Shown here piece by piece: positions 27,527 to 38,200 of a DNA stretch of 64,000 nt. Position numbers and translations under genes: made by a program. The notes beneath the pieces were generated by a model. That model made no database searches and was not told where the DNA came from. It saw only the letters and a list, made by a program, of their open reading frames with translations. This stretch comes from an uncultured Chlamydiales bacterium. Its GTDB lineage: Bacteria > Chlamydiota > Chlamydiia > Chlamydiales > JAAKFR01. The stretch lies in contig OY969414.1 of the NCBI GenBank assembly GCA_963699155.1, positions 1,739,757 to 1,803,756 of the forward strand, read 5' to 3'. Position 1 is the stretch's first letter. The number at the start of each line of letters is the position of its first letter.

Positions 27527-28135
27527 TCACTCTTTCTTTAGACTAAGGTCAAGATTAGAAAACAGCGAAGATTGTAAGGCGTCCAATTTTGATTCGAAAA
27601 ACGTTTTTACTTTACGGAGCTGCTCCATTCCTTCTGGTGAGTAATGAGTTGAAGGAGAACTCAGTTCTTTCTCAATGCTGACAATTTTTTGCGCTAAACG
27701 CGCTCTGAAGCTATGAACCTGGGCATCATCTTTCATTTTATCGACATCAGGCTCTCCCTTTTCCAATGAAAGAATAACATATACGCCAACGGCTCCACAG
27801 ACACCAAAGATGGTCCCTAAACCGAGCGTACCTACCTTTATATAAGTAAAAATTCCAACTTTTATGCTGCCCGGCAAATAGTGTAGATAAGCTGCAGTAC
27901 TTGACAGAAACCCGACAAATGAACCAACTCCAGCACTATAGAATCCAGCCATGGTAGCAGGCAAAAGCCGTACTACCCTTGGCATTCTTTGAGATAAGTT
28001 AGAGGCAAACTCAGTGACACTTTTTTGGGCCTCTTGTTTGGCACTCTCTTCGTCCTGATCCATTTTTTTTAGAAAAGGAGAAAGGGTCTCACTCACTGCA
28101 GTTCGTGCATAGAGATCACTGGGTTGAATGGCCAT
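27527..28135 (-). CDS. Inc-like membrane protein (central bilobed hydrophobic domain, coiled-coil C-terminus)
   Basis: Two Gly-rich hydrophobic segments joined by a short loop. Likely start MAIQ at 28135. Confidence 0.6.
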   Translation of the reverse strand: MAIQPSDLYARTAVSETLSPFLKKMDQDEESAKQEAQKSVTEFASNLSQRMPRVVRLLPATMAGFYSAGVGSFVGFLSSTAAYLHYLPGSIKVGIFTYIKVGTLGLGTIFGVCGAVGVYVILSLEKGEPDVDKMKDDAQVHSFRARLAQKIVSIEKELSSPSTHYSPEGMEQLRKVKTFFESKLDALQSSLFSNLDLSLKKE

Positions 28136-28220
28136 AGAAAACTCCTTCAGAAAAAACATATCGCATAAGAGTTTTTTTTAACGTTAAATCTGATATAAAA
28201 CTCGCTCGTGTCTGGTAACT

Positions 28221-28868
28221 ATGGCTTCTATAACAGGTTTAAGTTCATACAATCCTTTGGCGGATTCTGAAGAATTAAAGAATATTCTTGCCCCTGGCGA
28301 TAAAGAAAAAATTGCTTTTGATCTTCTCGTCAAAATCTTTCAGCCAGGCGCTCTTCCGATTGATGAGCTTCATCCCGATGTTTCTTCTAAAAAAACAGAA
28401 GAAGCGCTCCTTGGCAGAATTCAAGACAAATTTTCCAAAGCTCTCGAAAGTTATAGAAAAGATTATGAAGAGGCCAAAAAATTGGATGAAGCCAGGTTCA
28501 AAGAGATAGATGCTAAGCTCCAACAAGGAATCAATGAGACTCATTTTGCGAGAAAATATGCCTTCTTAGGATTACTACTGGCCGGTATAGGAGCTATCCC
28601 GGGCTATTTCATTGGAAGAAGTTGGGATGAGGATGTGATCAATCGATTAAAAGAGAGCGCTATGAGAGAGAAGTATAGTTACCGAAGATTTTGGCTGATA
28701 AAAGTGGATATTCTTGAAAAAGAACGCATCGTTCAAAACCTCAAGGATATCAAAATGATAGTGAATACGCTGACTGAGCAAATCTCAAAGCTTCTCCCTG
28801 GTAAGGAACTGGCCGTGAAGGAAGCTGAAATGGGAAAACTGACAAAAATTTTAAGAAAGTATTCCTAA
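28221..28868 (+). CDS. Hypothetical single-TM coiled-coil protein
   Basis: 215 aa with one hydrophobic segment (YAFLGLLLAGIGAIPGYFIG). Its stop abuts the ATG of the next gene. Confidence 0.7.
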   Translation: MASITGLSSYNPLADSEELKNILAPGDKEKIAFDLLVKIFQPGALPIDELHPDVSSKKTEEALLGRIQDKFSKALESYRKDYEEAKKLDEARFKEIDAKLQQGINETHFARKYAFLGLLLAGIGAIPGYFIGRSWDEDVINRLKESAMREKYSYRRFWLIKVDILEKERIVQNLKDIKMIVNTLTEQISKLLPGKELAVKEAEMGKLTKILRKYS

Positions 28869-31800
28869 ATGTCTATTCGTGCATCCTGCGGCCGACCAGC
28901 CTCACCAGTTAATGAGCATCCACTTTTAAGAGTTTCTCCTCACGTCTCCTCAGAAACGCTGTGGAAAATATTAGCTCCCCTTATGTTTATCCCTATCACC
29001 TATCCCAACAAAGATTTACAGGGGAGAACTTTGCAACTCTGGAAATATAAAAATTCTCTACGCGGCACTCTCATCGACGCTGAAGGCCATATCCGCTTTT
29101 TTTCGGGAAAAAAAATCCGCAACCCTTGCGCTCTCGACGGAGAAGATCTCCATCTTTTAGCCAATCTAGAGAGCTCTGGCCTGCGCCAATGGCACCTGGG
29201 TTACTCTGAAGCTGCTGGTGAAATCTATATTTTCCCCTATTTAACCGCCGCAGGAAGAAAAGGGGATGTCGATCTGAGTCAAGGCAACAAAAGTCTCATA
29301 CAGGAGTTCAGAGGACGCTTTTCTGCTGCCATCGAACACCTCAAGGCGCGAGACTTGAGAGCGGCTCAAAGAGAAATAAAGGGTGAGGTTGTAAAATGGA
29401 ATAGAAGGGATGATTTCATCAAGTACAGAGGAGCAGATGGTAAAACAGCCAAACTACCTATCCCTGGAATAAAAAGAATAGAACCCTATCACCATTGGAA
29501 AGAAGTTCAAGAGACACAAAAAAATCTTGGAAAACGAGTAGAGGAACTAAACACATTATTAAAATCTTTCCAAAATAAAGAGAGAGGATACGCTCAAGAA
29601 GAATTCAACCAGACTAAACGCCTGCATGAAGATTATACCCATTTGCTGCGCCAAACTTATCGGTTTGTTCCTCCAGATGCCAAACCTCCTGACGGTTTCG
29701 AAAAAAGAACGCCGCTTCTACTCACCCACACGAAAGGTGGTGGTGATTCGCTGAGCACCAAACATTTTGAAAATATGCTCAGACAAACGGGGCTGATGGA
29801 TAGCTATAAGAGCAGTAATCCTCAGGCCTCATTTTCGGGAGGCGGCAGAGCAGATATTGGAGGTGTGGCGTGTAGCCCAGCCTATATCCAGGGATTGTTT
29901 GATCCCCCTGAAACTCTATTTGAAAGAGAGCACTATTTTGCTTTTCCGGTGGCTGGGAGCTCACCGCCATTTTCCGATGAGGAGTTGCGGCAGATCTTAC
30001 AGGAGCTAGCAATCGGAATCTATGTACATGATACCATCCCCTTTTTCAGCCTCCATTTTGATAGAGATTCCAACCTTTTTCCAGTGATTCACCCGGTGTA
30101 CCGCCACACATTAGTGGGCAGGGTGATCAGCATGCTCGACTATATGATGAAAGGCTATCTGAACGGAGGCGTTTTTCATGAGACCTTTATCGATGATTGG
30201 GCCAAAAACCCCCACTGGCCTGCTCAGAAGGAAAAGGGACGTCAAGAGCTGATCGATTTCCAAGACTATTGTCTCAAAGAACTGAACGACGGGGATCAGT
30301 CTTACTTTTCACTGAGAACCTTGAAATTGAGAAACTTGGAACTAGGAGAGTCTGATAAACCTGCTTCCCAAACCGACTTTTCAGGCTTCAGGAACTCTTT
30401 CCGTATTATCGGCAAGCAGAAGAGCTATCAGAAAGAGGGGCCTCTTTTCACCGTTGATACCGATTTTGATGTCCTTTATACGATCTCTCCTCCTGCTACC
30501 TATCAAGCAACAGATGGCAAAGCAGCCCCAGGCTATCAAGAACTGGAGGGACTTTTTAAAGAAATGGTCCAACGCATCCATGATCACATGCCTAAGATAC
30601 CTATCTGCAGAAGGTATTTTGAGATGCTCTCTGTCATTAACTTTTTTTCCGCCTATTTTTCAACAATGAAGCGTCATCGGAAAATTCCCAATCTTCTTCC
30701 CGCTATCTCGACAGGGAAAAGCAATGGCTGCCCTACCCTCTTTCCCCATTTGCCTATCCAGAAGTTCAGTCAAGAATTCATCCAGGCTAATTTCTTTGAT
30801 CTCATTCAATCGGCTCAAAGAGCCATTCAGACATTTGGACAAGATATCTATCTCTCACAACAGGCTAAACAAGATTTAACTGCCCTTCTGGAGATCAATA
30901 AAAAGGCTCTTCTACGTCAATTGAAGATGGCTCTTCAGTCTGAGATTTTAAAACGAGCGAGTAGACCACTGAGGATCTATTTTGAAAGCCAAAATCAGAA
31001 ACTGGGAGAGATAGTTGATAAGAATGAGGATATGTTAAGGAAAATAGTTTTGACCATCTTTGAGTTCTATCAGAAAAATCTAGCTAAACAAAAATCAGAG
31101 ATCGAAGCTCAAGCTCAAAAACTAGTGGTCCTCTTTGAACAAGAAAGACAACAGAAAATCACACAAGAACTGCATAAAGTATTTAACGAACTATGGCCAG
31201 AGTTGCTAAAGAGAATGGCTGATCACAATCAGGTAAAGAATCTCTATTCTATTCGCTATACAGTCTCCTTGCTTGAGTCAGATTTAGCTTCAGGAGAAAT
31301 CGAGATCGAGTATGGTAAGCGGGTTGTTGGTGGCTGTGGACTTCGGTTAAAAGAGCGGCCTTTGCACCCCTCATTTCAAGGGGCGCTCTTACTTCAACAA
31401 CAGGAAACTGCTTTACAAGAGATGCTAGAAGAGCGTTGGACCCTCTTAAATGGCGTAGGAAGCTCCTTTGCTACTTTGCGACTCAGTTTTGACGAACTCT
31501 CTCCAGGAGAGGCTAATGACTACTCCTGGATGAGGGATTGGCTATCGCCAGAAGCAGAAATGACCACTGATTCTGTTGAGCTATTGAGTGCTTTCGACGA
31601 TCCCTCCTCTCTGAAACTCCTGATCGAAAAGGGTCTACAGCCTGATCGCCCTGATTCCGATGGCTATACGCCTATTCATCTTGCTGCAATGCATGGAAGT
31701 CAAGCTTGTGTGCAACTTTTATTACAAAAAGAGCCTCGCTGCTTAAATGTAAAGAGTGTTCAGGGGCTCACTCCGCTGCTCGTTGCTATCGAGCACAATC

Positions 31801-34800
31801 AACTCTCCGTTGCACAGTTGTTAGTTGCCAATGGAGCCGCTTGGACGGTAACGAGAGAAGGGTATAATCCCCTTCATGTGGCTTTACAACTGGGCCATCT
31901 TGAAATGACTGAACTGCTTTTGACCTCTCCTCACCTGCGTTTTTTTATCAACGAAGATAGCGAGGAAGGTGGAACTCCACTCATGCTTGCCTCTGCATTA
32001 GATAATCCCGATCTCGTAGAAGCTTTAATTGCAAAAGGTGCTAACGCCGCCTATCAAACTAAAACGGGTCAATCGGCTACAAGAGTCGCCTTACGCAGGA
32101 AATGTCTCCCTGTCTTGAAAGTGTTATGTCAGCAGGAGCGGTCGACTTCTGAGTCCATTCATTTTGCTTGCGCAGAAGGGAGTGTAGAGATCATTGAAAT
32201 CATGAGAATTCAAGCAAACACACCCACAAATGCTTCTGGGGATACAGCGCTCCATACCTCGCTCCTCTCTGGCAACCTACGAGTGGCACTTCATCTCATC
32301 AAAAATAGACCCAGTGGCCAGGTATTAGACAATCCGAATCATCAGGGGGTCACTCCCATGCAGCTGGCCCTTAGATGGGGATTCTGGGAAGTGATCGACC
32401 TTTTAGCAGCCCAGGGGATTCCATTCTTTCTGATTGAAGCGATGCGCCTACACTATCATCCTCTTTTAAAGAAGCTCGTTCAAAATGAAGAGTATTCTCA
32501 AAAGGAGCTTCAAGCAGCTTTGGAGCGAGCGATTCGATGCCGTAACTACGAAGCGATCAGTCAGGTCTTAATTCCCAAGGGGGCAGATATTTACACCTTC
32601 CAAGATGCGCAGGGTCGAAGGCTCATCCACTATTTAGCCGCCTCAGATGGGATTCATCTATTTAAAGAATGGCTTTCTAAGAGAATGGAGGATCTAACGC
32701 TGATTCATACGGGAAAAACTCTGCTCTACATCGCTGCAGAAAATCGAAGTCATCGCATTTTTTCTTACCTTTTAGGTTTGGTCAAAGAGAAAAGAGCCTC
32801 CCTACAGCCTAAAGGGGCTTTTCACCCCTTACAGGCAGTCGCTGAGTCAGGTGACAAAGAACTTTTCGATGAGCTAGTCACCTCTTTTCCCGATCAAAAC
32901 CTGCCCAATCATGTTTTAGATGATCGTGGCACAAGAGCCAGCCATATTGCAGCAAGAAAGGGACACAAAGCCCTCTTTGATCTGCTAAAAGCTCAAGGAG
33001 CTGAAGCCGCAGCAACCGATCGCTCTGGAAAATCGGCTCATGATTATGCGATCGAGAATGGTCATGCTGCGCTCTTTTCAAAAGAGCTAGAGGGAGCCGC
33101 CCTTTCCAGTGAATCCCTTCTGAAATTAGCAGAAGAGGCCAACCTATTATTACTCCAGTCAGCGATCCAATTACCCCATACTCAGAAAAACTATGACCAC
33201 TCTCTGATCTTGGCTGCTCAATACAATTCCAAGCTGGCCTTCATACGACTTTGGGGGGCTGGAAAACCTTCAGAAAAAAGTGTGAGAGAAGCTTTTCTCA
33301 TTGTATCCAGACGAGGTCATTTTGAACTTTTAGAATTCATGTTAATGCAAAACCCAACCCTGGCTCAAACCTCGTCTGGAGAAGAATTCAATCCTGTAGC
33401 GGAGGCTGAAAAAAATGGACAGACACGCTGTGCCTTACGTCTCCAAGGGAAAGATTTCCCTAAAAGCAAATACCAACTCTCCATTGAAGCTGACAATTGG
33501 GAAACAGTGACTTTAAAACTATTTCAAGCATTGTCTCAACGCCCTTTCAACGAAGAGTTAGAGGTGGTCGTGTTTGGACAAAGCTGGTGGGGAACTCCTC
33601 TACAACTCTTATTCCAAATTCATGCGAAAAAGGAGGCTTTAGATCTGATTGAATTGAATAAGGAAAAAATAGATCCCAACCGCCAAGACAGCAATGGAAA
33701 TACCTTAGCTCATCTGCTTCTTTTACATCAGATCGATCCCACCTTTCTCACCAATATCGACTTCACCAAGAAAAATTATCAGGATCAAACACTGGCTCAT
33801 TTAGCTGCAAAAAAAATGCCTACAGAAACTTTAGAGGCTATTTTTAGAGAAAATCCTGATTTGATTCATGCGAAAGATCGTCAGGGGCGGGCACCTCTTG
33901 TTTATAGTTTGGAGGCCGACTCAACAGAAAACTTGGTCTATCTGATTGAAAAAAGAGGTGTAGAATTAACTCCCGAGCTCCTTTTGGCTTGCTGTAAAAA
34001 AGGAAAAATCAACCACGCGAGAGTACTTATTGAGCATGGTCTGATTCCTGACCCTTCTTGCCTTCAGAATGCCCTTCAACAAGAAAATGAGAAGCTAGTC
34101 CATCTCTTATTGGAGTATGGAGTGAAAGTAGATCAGCCATTTTCCGATGGCAGCTCTCCCCTTCATCTAGGAGCTCGTTCAAAAGATCTACGTCTCTTGC
34201 GTCTACTCGTTGCAAAAGGAGCTATCATTGAGGCAATAGATTCCAGAGGATTTCAACCGATTCATATTGCGGCCCAACAGGGTAATAGTGAAGCTGTCGA
34301 AGAATTGGCAGAACTCCAAGGAGAAGGGATAGATGTCTGCACTCAAAAGGGAGAAACTCCTTTACACCTATCTGCGCTCCATGGTCAAACAGAAACAGTG
34401 GAAAGAGAGTTGCTGCTCGGAGCCGATCCTGAGAAGAAAACGACCCAAAAGCAGGATGTGCTCTCTTTTTCAGCAGCCGGGCAAAGAGCTGCTCCTACCC
34501 TAGAGCTATTTTTGCCCTATAAGTTTTCTCAAGAGTTGGATCGACTCGGCCCAGCACTTGTGCAAGCGATTAGAAATGATAATCTTGATGCAATGGTTGC
34601 CTTATATAATCGAGGGATCTCTTGCATCTCTTCTCTGATCACTGGATTAAATATCACTGGTTTGCATATCGCCAGCGAAAGTGGGGCTCTCTTGTGTACG
34701 CAATGGCTTCTTGAACAAGGTGTAGATCCTCATCTTCAAAATCATGAGGGAGAGACAGCCTATACTCTAGCAGCCGTCAATCGCTCTTCAGAGCAGTTTA

Positions 34801-35276
34801 GATTGCTTCTCGAATATAGCGATTGGAATCGGAAGAAAGAGGAAAGGCTGCTCCATCTGGCTACCCAAGCAAATAATCTACAGCATGTTCTCATACTCAT
34901 CTTAATGGGTGTCGAGATCGATGCAAGGGATCTGCGTGGGAACACGGCCCTGCACATAGCCATCAAGCATGAACGTAAAGAGATGACACGCCTTTTACTC
35001 TGCCTTGGAGCTGATTTTGCTTTGCCTGATCAAGAGGGCATGACCCCGCAAATAAGGAGACCTGAATGGAAGCAGTTGTTTGAAGAGGCGATGAAGCAGT
35101 CCGATCTTTTACTCCGTTCTGTTGAAATGCAATGTCTGGCTGCTCTCTTGTTTCATTCCCAAGCGGAAGCTGTTTTTGATGAAAAAGGGAAAGGGAGTGA
35201 GGCCATCGCTTTAGCTGAAAGTATGGGGCTGAAAAAAATTCACTTCCTGCTCCTTCAACAAAAGTCCAGGTTTTAG
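28869..35276 (+). CDS. Giant ankyrin-repeat protein with an N-terminal Ntox28-like motif and a central unknown domain
   Basis: 2135 aa. Many ANK motifs from ~31600 onward (GYTPIHLAA, GLTPLLVAI, GGTPLMLAS, GETPLHLSA, GNTALHIAI). N-terminal EHL..RDL.AA.REIKGEVV...HWKEV motif. Confidence 0.85.
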   Translation: MSIRASCGRPASPVNEHPLLRVSPHVSSETLWKILAPLMFIPITYPNKDLQGRTLQLWKYKNSLRGTLIDAEGHIRFFSGKKIRNPCALDGEDLHLLANLESSGLRQWHLGYSEAAGEIYIFPYLTAAGRKGDVDLSQGNKSLIQEFRGRFSAAIEHLKARDLRAAQREIKGEVVKWNRRDDFIKYRGADGKTAKLPIPGIKRIEPYHHWKEVQETQKNLGKRVEELNTLLKSFQNKERGYAQEEFNQTKRLHEDYTHLLRQTYRFVPPDAKPPDGFEKRTPLLLTHTKGGGDSLSTKHFENMLRQTGLMDSYKSSNPQASFSGGGRADIGGVACSPAYIQGLFDPPETLFEREHYFAFPVAGSSPPFSDEELRQILQELAIGIYVHDTIPFFSLHFDRDSNLFPVIHPVYRHTLVGRVISMLDYMMKGYLNGGVFHETFIDDWAKNPHWPAQKEKGRQELIDFQDYCLKELNDGDQSYFSLRTLKLRNLELGESDKPASQTDFSGFRNSFRIIGKQKSYQKEGPLFTVDTDFDVLYTISPPATYQATDGKAAPGYQELEGLFKEMVQRIHDHMPKIPICRRYFEMLSVINFFSAYFSTMKRHRKIPNLLPAISTGKSNGCPTLFPHLPIQKFSQEFIQANFFDLIQSAQRAIQTFGQDIYLSQQAKQDLTALLEINKKALLRQLKMALQSEILKRASRPLRIYFESQNQKLGEIVDKNEDMLRKIVLTIFEFYQKNLAKQKSEIEAQAQKLVVLFEQERQQKITQELHKVFNELWPELLKRMADHNQVKNLYSIRYTVSLLESDLASGEIEIEYGKRVVGGCGLRLKERPLHPSFQGALLLQQQETALQEMLEERWTLLNGVGSSFATLRLSFDELSPGEANDYSWMRDWLSPEAEMTTDSVELLSAFDDPSSLKLLIEKGLQPDRPDSDGYTPIHLAAMHGSQACVQLLLQKEPRCLNVKSVQGLTPLLVAIEHNQLSVAQLLVANGAAWTVTREGYNPLHVALQLGHLEMTELLLTSPHLRFFINEDSEEGGTPLMLASALDNPDLVEALIAKGANAAYQTKTGQSATRVALRRKCLPVLKVLCQQERSTSESIHFACAEGSVEIIEIMRIQANTPTNASGDTALHTSLLSGNLRVALHLIKNRPSGQVLDNPNHQGVTPMQLALRWGFWEVIDLLAAQGIPFFLIEAMRLHYHPLLKKLVQNEEYSQKELQAALERAIRCRNYEAISQVLIPKGADIYTFQDAQGRRLIHYLAASDGIHLFKEWLSKRMEDLTLIHTGKTLLYIAAENRSHRIFSYLLGLVKEKRASLQPKGAFHPLQAVAESGDKELFDELVTSFPDQNLPNHVLDDRGTRASHIAARKGHKALFDLLKAQGAEAAATDRSGKSAHDYAIENGHAALFSKELEGAALSSESLLKLAEEANLLLLQSAIQLPHTQKNYDHSLILAAQYNSKLAFIRLWGAGKPSEKSVREAFLIVSRRGHFELLEFMLMQNPTLAQTSSGEEFNPVAEAEKNGQTRCALRLQGKDFPKSKYQLSIEADNWETVTLKLFQALSQRPFNEELEVVVFGQSWWGTPLQLLFQIHAKKEALDLIELNKEKIDPNRQDSNGNTLAHLLLLHQIDPTFLTNIDFTKKNYQDQTLAHLAAKKMPTETLEAIFRENPDLIHAKDRQGRAPLVYSLEADSTENLVYLIEKRGVELTPELLLACCKKGKINHARVLIEHGLIPDPSCLQNALQQENEKLVHLLLEYGVKVDQPFSDGSSPLHLGARSKDLRLLRLLVAKGAIIEAIDSRGFQPIHIAAQQGNSEAVEELAELQGEGIDVCTQKGETPLHLSALHGQTETVERELLLGADPEKKTTQKQDVLSFSAAGQRAAPTLELFLPYKFSQELDRLGPALVQAIRNDNLDAMVALYNRGISCISSLITGLNITGLHIASESGALLCTQWLLEQGVDPHLQNHEGETAYTLAAVNRSSEQFRLLLEYSDWNRKKEERLLHLATQANNLQHVLILILMGVEIDARDLRGNTALHIAIKHERKEMTRLLLCLGADFALPDQEGMTPQIRRPEWKQLFEEAMKQSDLLLRSVEMQCLAALLFHSQAEAVFDEKGKGSEAIALAESMGLKKIHFLLLQQKSRF

Positions 35277-35286
35277 GAAATTTAAA

Positions 35287-38200
35287 GTGGCCATCCAAGA
35301 AAGTCTCAGGCTCTTTTTCACCTCCGGTGAGCTGGACAACATCGACCGATTACCAAAGAGAGTGCAGGAGCATTACTGCACACGTTACCAAGGAGTTGAC
35401 CAACTTGATGAGTTAGAACTCAAAATCCTCAAGCTGATTGCTGAAGTGGTCCCATTGTGCAAAGATCGAGCGTTAGCAGAGGACTTTTTTTTAACTCTGG
35501 ATAAAGGCAGTCCAGAACAGACTCTGAAGAAATTGTCACTGTTAAAAAAAATCTGTCAGGAGGGTCAAAATCAACGGATAGAGGCTCTTTTGCAATGTGC
35601 AGTGACTAGGAAAAAGGAGTATTACAACACTGCTGCTCTTTCCCAGATGATCGAGGCATTTGATTCATTGAAAGAAGAAGCTCAAAGAAGCTTACCCACC
35701 CCCTTTCCTCCTTATGAAGCAGGTGGGAGAGAGCTTTTACTTCAATTAAAATGGGGGATTTGTGTCAGAGGTGCCCCTTCCAGGTTGCAGAGAGGCATGT
35801 GGGATTCATTTTACAATGCCTCAGATCCTCCACAGAAAATCAAAACTCTTGCGCTTCAACTTCTTCAACTTTTACCTGAAAAACAGAGAGTTGACTTAGA
35901 ACTCTATCGCACTTTTTTCAACAAAATTCTTACAGAAAATAAATTAAGAGCCCCTTCTAAAGCTTTTTTAATCAAACTGACGGTATTGACCACGACGGTG
36001 GCAGATAAAAAGTCTGCAGCCCCTCTCTTTTTTTGGGATGATTTTCAAGAACTTTTAGCGGAAACCGTCGCTCTCGTTAAAGTAGTAGGTGAAGAGGGTT
36101 TTGAAGCCATTGCTGAGAGTTTCTTGGCAGAAGGGGATAAAAATTTTGAAGATCTTCGATCCATCATCTCTTTAGTGACCTGGTTTGGCAACCAATCAGG
36201 TCAATGGGAATGGTTAAAGCAGAAGCTACAATCGATTAGAAATAGAGAAAAAAAGCTCAATGCCTTCCTCTCTGACTTGGAAGAGTGCTTTGTTGAGCTG
36301 CGTAGTCAAATGCCGGTCGGCTTGCCTAGCAATATAGAAGTGCTACTCAAACGCTTTGAGCTTCCTGATCCCCGTTGTGTCCAGTATCCATTGTCAAAGG
36401 ATAAAATCGAATGTATAAAAAAACAGTATCAAGCGATCCACAAGTTATGTGTGGCTCGCAATGGTTGGCATCTCTCGCGATGTGCTCAGCGTGTACGTGA
36501 GATCCAGAAAAAAGGAAAATTAAATGAGGAGGATATCCATGAGTTGATGGCCTCCGCTTATTTGGTGATTCGCATTAAATTTCAAATCGATCTTCACCCC
36601 ACTCAAATTTTAGCGGTTTTAGCTCTTCTTGCTTGTTCTCCAAGGGGCTTTGCCCAAATTAAAACCGGTGAAGGTAAGACATTCGATGTGACCCTTCTCG
36701 CCTTCATAATGGTGATGCATCTTATGCGGGTTCATATTGTCACCTCTTCACGCCCTCTTGCCATCCGTGATCAACGCCAAATGGCCTCCTTCTTTCACAT
36801 ATTTGCTATTACCACAGATCATATCTGTGAAGACCAGAGAGCGGCACAGCACTACCAGGCGCAAATCATCTATGGAACCGCTTATGACTATGAGTTCTCT
36901 CTGATGCGAGAAATGCTCTATTCAATCACACTTTTTCCACCTAAACGAACCGGCGAACAACCTTTCGATTGTGTGATTGTGGATGAGATGGATAATTTGA
37001 CTATCGATACCGCTTCAGATTCTGCACGCCTTTCAATGCAAGTGGAAACAACCTTCGAATGGATCTATCACGCAATTTACCGCTTTATTTCACGAGAACA
37101 AGATCCCTCTTTCCCATCACTTTGTGCCTACCTCAGGGAGCATCATGCCACTCAATTCACCCTATTCACCAAAGAACAGGGAATATTAAAAGGGGGAAAA
37201 AAGTTGATGACCTTGCTGGGTGCCGCCCTCTATGTGCGCGACAAGTGCCATGTGAAGGAGGATTATGTCCTACTTCCCAATGAAGAGGGGGAAATAGAAG
37301 TTGTCATTGTCGACAAAAAAAATACCGGACAATTGAAAATAAGTAGCCGCTGGTCCTACGGAATTCATGAATTTATAGAGGTCAAACACGATTTAAAGGT
37401 GAGGAGAGAATCGCGGACTCCTATTTCTCTCTCTCATGCTGTTTTTTATTCTTTGTATGAATGCTTTTTTGGGCTATCAGGCACAGCAGGTTCTGAGGGA
37501 GACAGAGAAACCCTCAAGGAGGTTTACCAGGTGGAGATTTTTGATGTTCCTACCGAGAAACCTCCACAAAGAGAAGATCTGCCTATCCGCTTTTTTCCAG
37601 AGAGGACGGATCTGCTGGTTGGAATTAAACAAAGAATCGAAGAAATGAAGGCCCGGAAGAGACCCAGCTTAATTCTTTGCGAATCAATCGAAGATTCGGA
37701 ATCTGTTGCAAAATTCTTACAAGACAACCATATCACTTTCGAACTGTTAAATGAATTACAGGAAAAGGGCAAAGATGAAATTCTAGAAGGGGCTGGCCAT
37801 CCTGGAGCCCTGACTGTTGCAACTAACAATGCCGCACGAGGGGAAGACATTAGGCTCAGAAAGGAGAGCGAAAGTCAGGGAGGGCTCTACGTCCTATTCA
37901 TTTTCTATCCTGAGTCAGATAGAGGTGAAGGTCAAGGAAGAGGAAGAGCAGGGCGTCAAGGGCAGCCAGGTACTTCCGAAATCTATCTTGCTAAAGACCG
38001 TTTAAAAATTGAGACTAAAGGGCTCTCAGACGATGAAATCGTGCAAAAGCTAACTGAAAGCAGAAAGGAAAAGGCAAAAAGTGGCCATTTAGCGTTAAGG
38101 CGAGGGAAAATTGAAAAAGAGCTCTTCAAAAAAGCGAAACAATTCTTTGAAAGAGTCAATCATTTTCACCGCATCATGACCGAGGAAAAGACCCTGCGGA

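Follow-up and report, generated by a model that had tools for sequence, protein, structure and literature searches.

In free-living proteobacteria, Ntox28 toxins are familiar as the C-terminal warheads that contact-dependent inhibition (CDI) proteins carry. The C-terminal toxin region of CdiA (CdiA-CT) from uropathogenic Escherichia coli 536 (EC536; PDB 5J43, 5J5V and 8ZYC) has been assigned to this family (PMC5562914), and in the published account of its active site the residues D155 (a Mg2+ ligand), K170, W176, H178 (the general acid) and E181 are required for toxicity and tRNA cleavage (PMC11724271). The signature given for Ntox28 in a table of Zhang et al. 2012 is D, K[DE], [DN]HxxE, E, and Chlamydiae are absent from the phyla given there for the family (PMC3482391). 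The idea that ankyrin proteins of endosymbionts borrow polymorphic-toxin domains is already found in that paper, which names Tox-REase-8 with ankyrin repeats in Wolbachia and Amoebophilus, and OTU and UCH domains in Waddlia and Protochlamydia. Here we describe an Ntox28-like domain near the N-terminus of a giant ankyrin-repeat protein of 2135 amino acids (28869..35276) encoded in a stretch of 64,000 nucleotides (the window) from an uncultured Chlamydiales bacterium (contig OY969414.1, positions 1,739,757 to 1,803,756). Nucleotide positions are those of the window, features lie on the plus strand unless stated, and residue numbers (aa) are those of the giant. A full-text literature search, judged mainly from titles and abstract openings, returned no paper in which Ntox28 was connected with Chlamydiae or this giant architecture was described.

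We consider it probable that aa 132-267 (29262..29669) form a strongly diverged Ntox28 cassette with the RNase fold in an exchangeable slot of a family of giant proteins. The original prediction, made from the letters of the DNA, held that such a domain was unusually placed here. Both the domain and its position are confirmed: it is N-proximal and internal (aa 132-267 of 2135), not at the extreme C-terminus. What makes this position unusual is that the slot which the domain occupies is exchangeable and belongs to a polymorphic family of giants with ankyrin repeats. The giant begins with about 38 poorly conserved residues, followed by a beta-rich conserved leader domain (aa 39-131; 28983..29261), the cassette, a linker rich in proline and glycine (P/G-rich; aa 268-295, 29670..29753), a core domain (aa 296-640), a less conserved helical region and the ankyrin array.

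Relationship of the cassette to Ntox28

The features from which the domain had been proposed are present in the translated sequence. The strings IEHLKARDLRAAQREIKGEVV and YHHWKEVQETQKNL lie at aa 155-175 and aa 207-220, the leader ends with IFPYLTAAG at aa 121-129, and the P/G-rich stretch follows the helical region at aa 268-295. Ntox28 (PF15605) is the best Pfam family for aa 118-264 (24.5 bits, E 3.1e-5). Besides the ankyrin repeats, the weak Ntox28 match is the sole other low-E Pfam match in the whole giant. The Pfam comparison that had been proposed thus gave Ntox28 as the top family but, for the window protein alone, a score under the curated cut-off of 25 bits.

Several results weigh against our reading, and the first of them concern this similarity. 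The window protein scores 24.5, 23.6, 22.9 or 17.1 bits depending on the fragment searched, all below the cut-off, and its Pfam match is restricted to aa 156-176 (21 residues; profile positions 26-46 of 113). A phmmer search of aa 118-344 against the PDB found no CdiA chain and returned two chance matches alone (E 0.75 and 1.6). The short, sub-threshold hit is what speaks for a chance match of helical, charged sequence, by which the segment would be an unrelated helical linker. We strongly disfavour this explanation and regard it as scarcely credible, since the relatives of the window protein tell a different story.

We aligned 24 heads (leader plus cassette; alignment A1), and every one of them matched PF15605 (E ≤ 1e-3; best 2.9e-22) and no other family. 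Seven of the nine short relatives scanned exceeded the 25-bit cut-off, with 28.0-67.2 bits, and four short relatives span nearly the whole profile, from position 14-20 to position 107-110 of 113; coverage of positions 14-112 was also seen among the relatives. A precomputed PF15605 annotation is carried by 17 of the 92 other full-length relatives. We also built a profile from the cassettes of 20 relatives, leaving out the window protein and its three nearest relatives. This leave-out profile matched aa 154-252 with 43.5 bits (E 8e-13 among 481 open reading frames (ORFs) of the window), whereas the second-best ORF of the window reached 4.2 bits. The top PDB match of the A1 profile among 177,635 PDB sequences was chain 5j5v_B, 'tRNA nuclease CdiA' (E 0.0034, 20.3 bits), and the alignment brings the catalytic residues His, Glu and Asp into line. 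The consensus of the common domain in A1 is L..xDL.AA.RE..GEVV...G.PYDH..EV...Q.GLK. The window protein also had weak Pfam matches to GLTSCR1, DUF5882 and Snapin, which we dropped because none recurs in the heads of the 24 relatives.

These profile matches, the transitive homology through the relatives and a consistent fold support the homology, and the Ntox28-like identity of the domain is upheld. We conclude that residues ~132-267 are very likely homologous to Ntox28 and CdiA-CT EC536, though strongly diverged.

Predicted structure

An AlphaFold2 model based on A1 has a mean predicted local distance difference test score (pLDDT) of 83.7. The model of the leader (aa ~40-122) consists of strands and a single helix, and most of its pLDDT block means are 77-97. 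The junction after it is predicted to be disordered (pLDDT <50 at model residues 90-101, which are aa 125-136). The cassette is modelled as four helices (aa 136-157, 160-170, 209-235 and 239-264), with a strand-rich insertion at aa 177-206 between helices 2 and 3, and the P/G linker is disordered at the end of the model (block means 48 and 38).

The model superposes on the EC536 tRNase over 95 of 96 residues at 2.9 Å, but generic, unrelated helical bundles score equally. The predicted fold therefore agrees with the Ntox28 assignment and is no proof of it. A Foldseek search of the PDB likewise gave no match at E ≤ 0.001; 5j5v_B ranked 24 (E 0.73) and 5j43_B ranked 48 of 350,542 chains, a result to be added to the opposing points above. 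This structural comparison with CdiA-CT EC536 had been suggested with the original prediction.

An exchangeable slot in a family of giant proteins

With aa 1-900 as query, a word-indexed search found 93 full-length relatives of 1353-3176 aa. Their named sources are nearly all Chlamydiae (Protochlamydia, Neochlamydia, Rhabdochlamydia, Simkaniaceae and Rubidus), and one row is Halioglobus. Query coverage among them is bimodal, at ~95% or ~66%, because almost all members share aa ~40-130 and aa ~296 onward and differ between, as seen by BLAST of the head. An exhaustive HMMER search with aa 1-344 against 1.84 billion representative sequences gave 126 proteins at E ≤ 0.001; the matched stretches fell either in the leader or at the beginning of the core, and in no protein was the cassette alone matched. 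Of the 171 family proteins that we collected, 144 have the leader and 131 have the start of the core, and 93-234 variable residues separate the two. The layout of the family is a short unstructured N-terminus, a leader ending in WPxLxAAG, a cassette, a P/G linker, the conserved core and an ankyrin array of ~1200 residues. The genome of the window holds one head and one core, so the giant is single-copy there.

A search for proteins that share the leader and carry other domains after it, suggested with the original prediction, was positive. The slot holds varied cassettes, one of which is Ntox50 (in relative P0009; 44.2 bits over the full profile length). We clustered the slot sequences of 124 non-redundant giants into 12 cassette groups: Ntox28 with 36 members after typing, a type that we call 'HxD' with 28, groups of 21, 13, 11, 5, 3 and 3, and four singletons. 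Single-linkage clustering of the raw inserts over-merged the Ntox28 and 'HxD' types through shared distal helices. Thirteen cassettes representing the non-Ntox28 types had no credible Pfam match at E ≤ 0.1. The 'HxD' cassettes (for example at loci L020, L021, L027, L030 and L036), which are without a Pfam match, carry the motifs GSPLRY..EE.., HxD and EPxHxD.

On a FastTree phylogeny of the core, the 12 cassette labels require 57 changes, compared with a minimum of 11 and a shuffled mean of 75.9. Ntox28 alone requires 22 changes, at least 14 of which are forced by well-supported branches. Five strongly supported pairs of sisters on this tree carry different cassettes (P0073/L023, P0075/L050, P0049/P0066, P0003/P0034 and P0002/L033). 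Interchangeable toxin domains on a conserved scaffold, one of the marks of polymorphic toxins, are thus present in this family.

The window protein is itself a mosaic, with head and body of different ancestry. Its leader is 62-67% identical to those of P0032, P0011 and P0094, whose cores are 43-45% identical to its own, whereas the cores nearest to its own (52-55%) belong to proteins with leaders only 31-38% identical to its leader. From this mismatch between leader and core identities it follows that leader and cassette move together. The cassette of the window protein is 24-33% identical to those of relatives whose leaders, in the same comparison, are 60-65% identical to its own. Within this head lineage, cassettes diverge much faster than leaders: P0032 and P0011 are 72% identical in the leader and 33% in the cassette. 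We propose that recombination moves the head, as a unit of leader and cassette, from one body to another, and with it the cassette-specific gene that directly precedes the giant.

Partner genes upstream of the giants

In 7 of 11 loci from whole genomes, a gene of ~200 codons (family F2) lies immediately upstream of the giant, and these are exactly the loci with Ntox28 giants. The association test was extended with 57 loci from genome records, which gave 33 unique loci with at least 700 nucleotides upstream. Ntox28 cassettes were preceded by F2 at 11 of these loci and not at two (the window and L038), and other cassettes were preceded by F2 at one locus (L053) and not at 19. The cassette of L053 scores E 0.004-0.006 with the Ntox28 profile. 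L038 was counted as Ntox28-positive by a preset Hidden Markov Model (HMM) rule, although its match covers the distal helices only; its partner is a leucine-rich repeat (LRR) protein. A metagenome scan yielded 27 loci, 11 of them with the leader, including two new Ntox28 loci that both have F2. Counting these two with the 33-locus set, F2 lies upstream at 13 of 15 Ntox28 loci.

Other cassette types have partners of their own. The cassette type c1 is preceded by the upstream family U1 at 4 of 4 loci and at 2 of 2 metagenome loci. Type c2 is preceded by U2 at 3 of 4 loci, the exception being L068, whose different partner recurs with an L068-like cassette in L091. LRR proteins are encoded just upstream of 'HxD' cassettes at 5 of 7 loci; these presumably recall the LRR ribonuclease inhibitors. 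On the 33-locus tree, the partner changes with the cassette in five well-supported sister contrasts (L023 versus L022 and L024, L038 versus L041, L018 versus L029, L015 versus L033, and L016 versus L034). Partner and cassette thus covary. The association is strong but not statistically settled: the conservative independent-pairs test, with 5 pairs of which 3-4 are concordant and none discordant, gives p 0.125, and we count this too on the opposing side.

F2 has no match in Pfam, NCBIfam or the PDB sequences. Its profile found no PDB entry better than E 0.4 and no CdiI chain. In the ESM Atlas it resembles HEAT-repeat proteins (feature score 0.95; template-modelling (TM) scores 0.59-0.68). HEAT-repeat immunity proteins ('ImmHEAT') are listed in tables of Zhang et al. 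2012 (PMC3482391). We infer that the upstream partner genes encode cassette-specific inhibitors, and that the HEAT-like protein would act as the immunity partner that protects the producer. At several loci (L030, L053, L061, L041 and L022) the region upstream of the giants holds additional pieces of the leader, one additional Ntox28 piece and partner genes in duplicate, which look like the orphan toxin-immunity remnants known from CDI and Rhs loci.

The window departs from this pattern. The F2 profile finds nothing at E ≤ 0.1 in its single-contig, 100%-complete genome, which is a further point against our reading, and a search of the genome with a single F2 protein also found none. In a control, the same profile found F2 once or twice in 3 of 5 genomes, precisely those with Ntox28 giants, and not in the other two. 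The place of the cassette-specific partner is taken by an ORF of 215 aa with one predicted membrane helix (28221..28868), whose TAA (28866-28868) abuts the ATG of the giant (28869) and which is unrelated to the partners of the relatives. It has no match in Pfam or NCBIfam. A single homologue was found in 301 genomes of the phylum, and it lies downstream of the C-terminus of a giant, not before a head. We rejected the ORF as a diverged F2 (F2 HMM score -0.1). With no F2 and an unrelated upstream ORF, the window shows no adjacent cognate immunity gene. The original prediction had assumed a lack of immunity context, which does not describe the family: the Ntox28 relatives nearly always have the HEAT-like upstream gene, and it is the genome of the window that is without it. 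Because the partner is missing from this genome, the cassette may be latent, guarded by the unrelated upstream ORF, or inactive.

Conservation of active-site residues

In the alignment of the A1 profile with 5j5v_B, Asp162 and Arg168-Glu169 (29352..29375) correspond to EC536 Asp155, the Mg2+ ligand, and Lys162-Asp163. The run Tyr207-His208-His209-Trp-Lys-Glu212 (29487..29504) corresponds to Trp176-Asp177-His178-x-x-Glu181, and Lys218 to Arg187. Four of the five residues Asp162, Glu169, Tyr207, His209 and Glu212 align with EC536 residues that are required for tRNA cleavage. The His and Glu of the HxxE motif, on which the original prediction had relied, are kept as His209 and Glu212. Measured against the Ntox28 signature, the window protein retains D162, R168-E169 (R for K), H209 and E212, and it also retains Tyr207, Pro206 and Gln217. 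Among the A1 heads, His209 is invariant (24 of 24), and Glu169, Pro206, Val213 and Gln217 are at least 90% conserved.

We counted residues in 50 non-redundant chlamydial cassettes, using the numbering of the window protein. Position 169 is E in 44 of 50, and position 209 is H in 44 of the 45 cassettes with a residue there. Position 208 is D in 26 and N in 13 (39 of 50 D or N), position 168 is R in 25 and K in 12, and position 212 is E in 21, D in 13 and K in 10. Position 162 holds H in 18, D in 16, T in 6 and E in 4.

The remaining opposing points come from these residues. The [DN] of [DN]HxxE is His208 in the window protein, which is unique among the 50 cassettes. The distal acid is replaced, with LLRQTY in place of the LLDxSE of relatives, leaving the last E of the signature without a counterpart. 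An insertion of about 30 residues (aa 177-206; 29397..29486), seen as alignment gaps and modelled as short strands, separates helices 2 and 3 and falls in the loop that makes up the active site in EC536. It is the longest among these cassettes, most relatives having a short loop. The Mg2+-ligand position 162 is variable in the chlamydial clade, and for this reason the EC536 chemistry may not transfer.

These departures favour a reading in which the cassette is a true descendant of Ntox28 that has lost its nuclease activity and whose present role is that of a helical spacer or binding module, so that no inhibitor would be needed in the producer. The absence from a complete genome of a partner found with 13 of 15 Ntox28 giants fits this reading, as do His208 before the catalytic His, the loss of the LLDxSE acid, the insertion in the active-site loop and the low identity of the cassette to those of its close-leader relatives. 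However, His209, Glu212, Asp162, Glu169, Tyr207, Pro206 and Gln217 are all kept, and the ORF is intact over 2135 codons. The fast divergence of the cassette is normal in its subclade, as the comparison of P0032 and P0011 shows, and loops of differing length also occur in cassettes accompanied by a partner. Furthermore, P0011, which has neither the [DN] nor the Glu of HxxE, still keeps its tandem partner gene. We judge loss of activity to be unlikely, if far from negligible.

We rate homology and activity differently because D162, E169, H209 and E212 are kept, but His208, the lost LLDxSE acid and the longest loop insertion depart from the pattern. Judged from its residues, catalytic activity of this particular cassette is close to an even question and may fall slightly short of it.

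Possible action and target of the cassette

If the cassette is active, it would be delivered into a target cell, either the host cytosol or a rival bacterium, where it would cleave tRNA or another RNA by analogy with EC536. On the same analogy, the predicted roles are metal-ion binding for Asp162, transition-state stabilisation for Tyr207 and general acid catalysis for His209. The expected outcome would be a block of translation. No secretion signal, protease or delivery system was identified, which completes the points against the reading of an Ntox28 cassette in an exchangeable slot.

One variant is an active RNase directed against rival bacteria that share a host cell or vacuole with the producer, instead of against the eukaryotic host. 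Type-specific upstream partners and frequent swapping of cassettes are hallmarks of interbacterial toxin-immunity systems, and L030, L053 and L061 hold extra leader or Ntox28 fragments and extra partner genes in the manner of orphan modules. An RHS-repeat gene also lies 4.3 kb downstream of the giant in the window. Against this, the ankyrin array of ~1200 residues and the restriction of the family to bacteria that live inside eukaryotic cells (Chlamydiae, Legionella, Mycoavidus and Holosporaceae) point to action in the host cell. No trafficking domain of the type V, VI or VII secretion systems (T5SS, T6SS or T7SS) was seen. Zhang et al. 2012, where they treat endosymbiont toxin domains linked to ankyrin repeats, read them as directed against the host (PMC3482391). 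The partner gene does not settle the target, because an RNase with a universal substrate needs an inhibitor in the producer whatever its target. We consider rival bacteria an improbable target.

A broader reading, which we hold only tentatively, is that the giants constitute an undescribed class of polymorphic toxins in obligate intracellular bacteria. In such a class, head and partner would be exchanged together, and cognate inhibitors (HEAT-like for Ntox28, LRR for another cassette type) would be encoded just upstream. A dedicated SecA-like ATPase would aid export of the protein of >2000 residues, and at least five more cassette types, all without a Pfam match, would represent new toxin folds. 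The giant of the window would then be a natural experiment, with an Ntox28 head that would have lost the HEAT-like inhibitor and gained a different, membrane-anchored upstream gene.

Leader, junction motif and N-terminus

The junction between leader and cassette carries the motif FPYLTAAG (29232..29255), which in the alignment of 24 heads corresponds to a nearly invariant family motif, WPxLxAAG[KR]. P123 and A127 are invariant, and L125 and G129 are at least 90% conserved. The motif and the disordered segment after it fit a domain boundary and a recombination junction. We rejected the suggestion that LTAAG recalls an LxGG-type cleavage motif, because conservation points to WPxLxAAG[KR] instead and no protease domain turned up. 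Cleavage at the junction would be a guess, for which the predicted disorder after the motif is the sole related evidence.

The first ~38 residues of the giant (28869..28982) are poorly conserved, with 35-40% identity to relatives over 16-26 residues, and inspection of the sequence revealed no hydrophobic signal peptide in them. They may nevertheless contain a secretion signal. At the other end of the head, chlamydial Ntox28 cassettes in A1 often end with xSEG[FY][IL] or xSEK[FY], where the window protein has TYRF. This motif is internal, and CysK-type docking as in EC536 would therefore need cleavage right after it.

Core domain, ankyrin array and wider distribution

The core domain (aa 296-640; 29754..30788) carries the motifs IGGVACS, PFFSLHF and LDYxMKGYLNGG, and its alignment (A2) has 40 invariant columns, which include His355, Glu379, Ser394, Asp424, Lys428, Arg512 and Asp532. 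The ~345 residues have no match in Pfam, NCBIfam or the PDB sequences, and the ESM Atlas gave no usable lead. Of 301 genomes that sample the phylum, 39 have the core, and it is present in 23 of 165 genera. Further occurrences are in records titled Legionella worsleiensis, L. moravica, L. nautarum and L. drancourtii, and in records titled Mycoavidus cysteinexigens and Holosporaceae 'Namur'. At the loci with non-chlamydial record titles (L055, L063-L075, L078, L079 and L082), the core is 28-39% identical. The L. worsleiensis and Mycoavidus proteins that we checked (L068 and L082) are ankyrin giants of >2000 aa. The core looks like a widespread uncharacterised effector domain.

The core is followed by a less conserved helical region (aa 641-900; 30789..31568), with 22-40% identity to relatives, and by the ankyrin array (aa ~901-2135; 31569..35273; Pfam Ank_2, 312.9 bits in 11 stretches). 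The first of the best Ank_2 stretches is aa 910-992, and ankyrin repeats then continue to the end of the giant.

Neighbouring genes

Ten nucleotides after the giant gene lies a gene for a divergent SecA-like ATPase of 1098 aa (35287..38583). It matches SecA_DEAD (122.1 bits) and P-loop_SecA (86.9 bits) in Pfam, and its score with the NCBIfam SecA model PRK09200 (242 bits) is far below the cut-off of 862. The protein has a unique N-terminal extension of ~370 residues. In 10 of 11 related loci from whole genomes, the giant is immediately followed by a homologue of this gene, which is a conserved operon partner. SecA-like domains are fused to the C-terminus of the giant in P0007, and P0093 carries the same precomputed SecA families. 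In several relatives, small ORFs resembling part of the SecA-like gene sit between the giant and the SecA-like gene.

Further downstream on the minus strand is the gene for an RHS/YD-repeat protein of 689 aa (39614-41683) with a signal-peptide-like N-terminus. The protein stops within the repeats, and no toxin tip can be recognised in it. On the same strand it is followed by two small, mutually paralogous ORFs (39077-39559 and 38600-39064), and the region may be a truncated Rhs toxin locus. Upstream, in divergent orientation (27527-28159, minus strand), an ORF of 210 aa has a long, two-lobed hydrophobic segment and no family match; the segment is presumably like that of chlamydial inclusion-membrane proteins. 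A scan for promoters and terminators gave counts not above those in shuffled sequence (15 found versus 16.6 expected, and 12 versus 13.2).

Comparison with known systems

The significance of the locus lies in an Ntox28 fold that occupies an N-proximal, exchangeable slot of giants common to Chlamydiae, Legionella, Mycoavidus and Holosporaceae. Should the cassettes prove active, these bacteria would possess a rapidly diversifying arsenal for cutting the RNA of hosts or rivals. The family would then be a source of several unnamed toxin domains, of two candidate inhibitor families and of a highly conserved core domain.

CdiA-CT EC536 resembles the cassette, which is predicted to be a small helical domain and superposable over 95 of 96 residues, and in which Asp ... 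[KR][DE] ... aromatic-x-His-x-x-Glu is in register, and it is the best solved structure for the family profile. The setting differs, as the cassette is N-proximal and internal in an ankyrin protein of Chlamydiae, whereas EC536 is the C-terminal tip of the CdiA filament. The cassette also has the ~30-residue loop insertion and a His for Asp177, and no CdiB, CdiI or HEAT-like partner is encoded near the giant. According to the account of the EC536 complex, the free C-terminal tail of the toxin inserts into CysK (PMC11724271). The cassette of the giant is followed by ~1870 residues and therefore has no free C-terminus, and no docking tail of this kind, unless it is processed.

The classical polymorphic toxins (CDI, Rhs and LXG), as set out by Zhang et al. 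2012 (PMC3482391), share with the giants a conserved scaffold with interchangeable toxins from a common pool (Ntox28 and Ntox50). They also share a conserved junction motif, an adjacent gene family that changes with the toxin type, and orphan-like remnants. In contrast to these toxins, the giants have their variable module N-proximal, with conserved sequence on both sides, and their partner gene lies upstream instead of downstream. Leader and cassette move as one, the ankyrin array forms the scaffold together with the core, and the linked ATPase is SecA-like and not of a T5SS, T6SS or T7SS; Pfam found no trafficking domain of these systems in the giant.

The endosymbiont ankyrin effectors are similar in that domains of the toxin pool are fused to ankyrin arrays, with a presumed action in the host cell. 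The likeness extends to the UCH domain, which is C-terminal in P0081, a member of the giant family. These effectors are described, in what Zhang et al. 2012 report of them, as without immunity genes and as non-polymorphic (PMC3482391), whereas the giants show turnover of their cassettes and partners specific to the cassette type.

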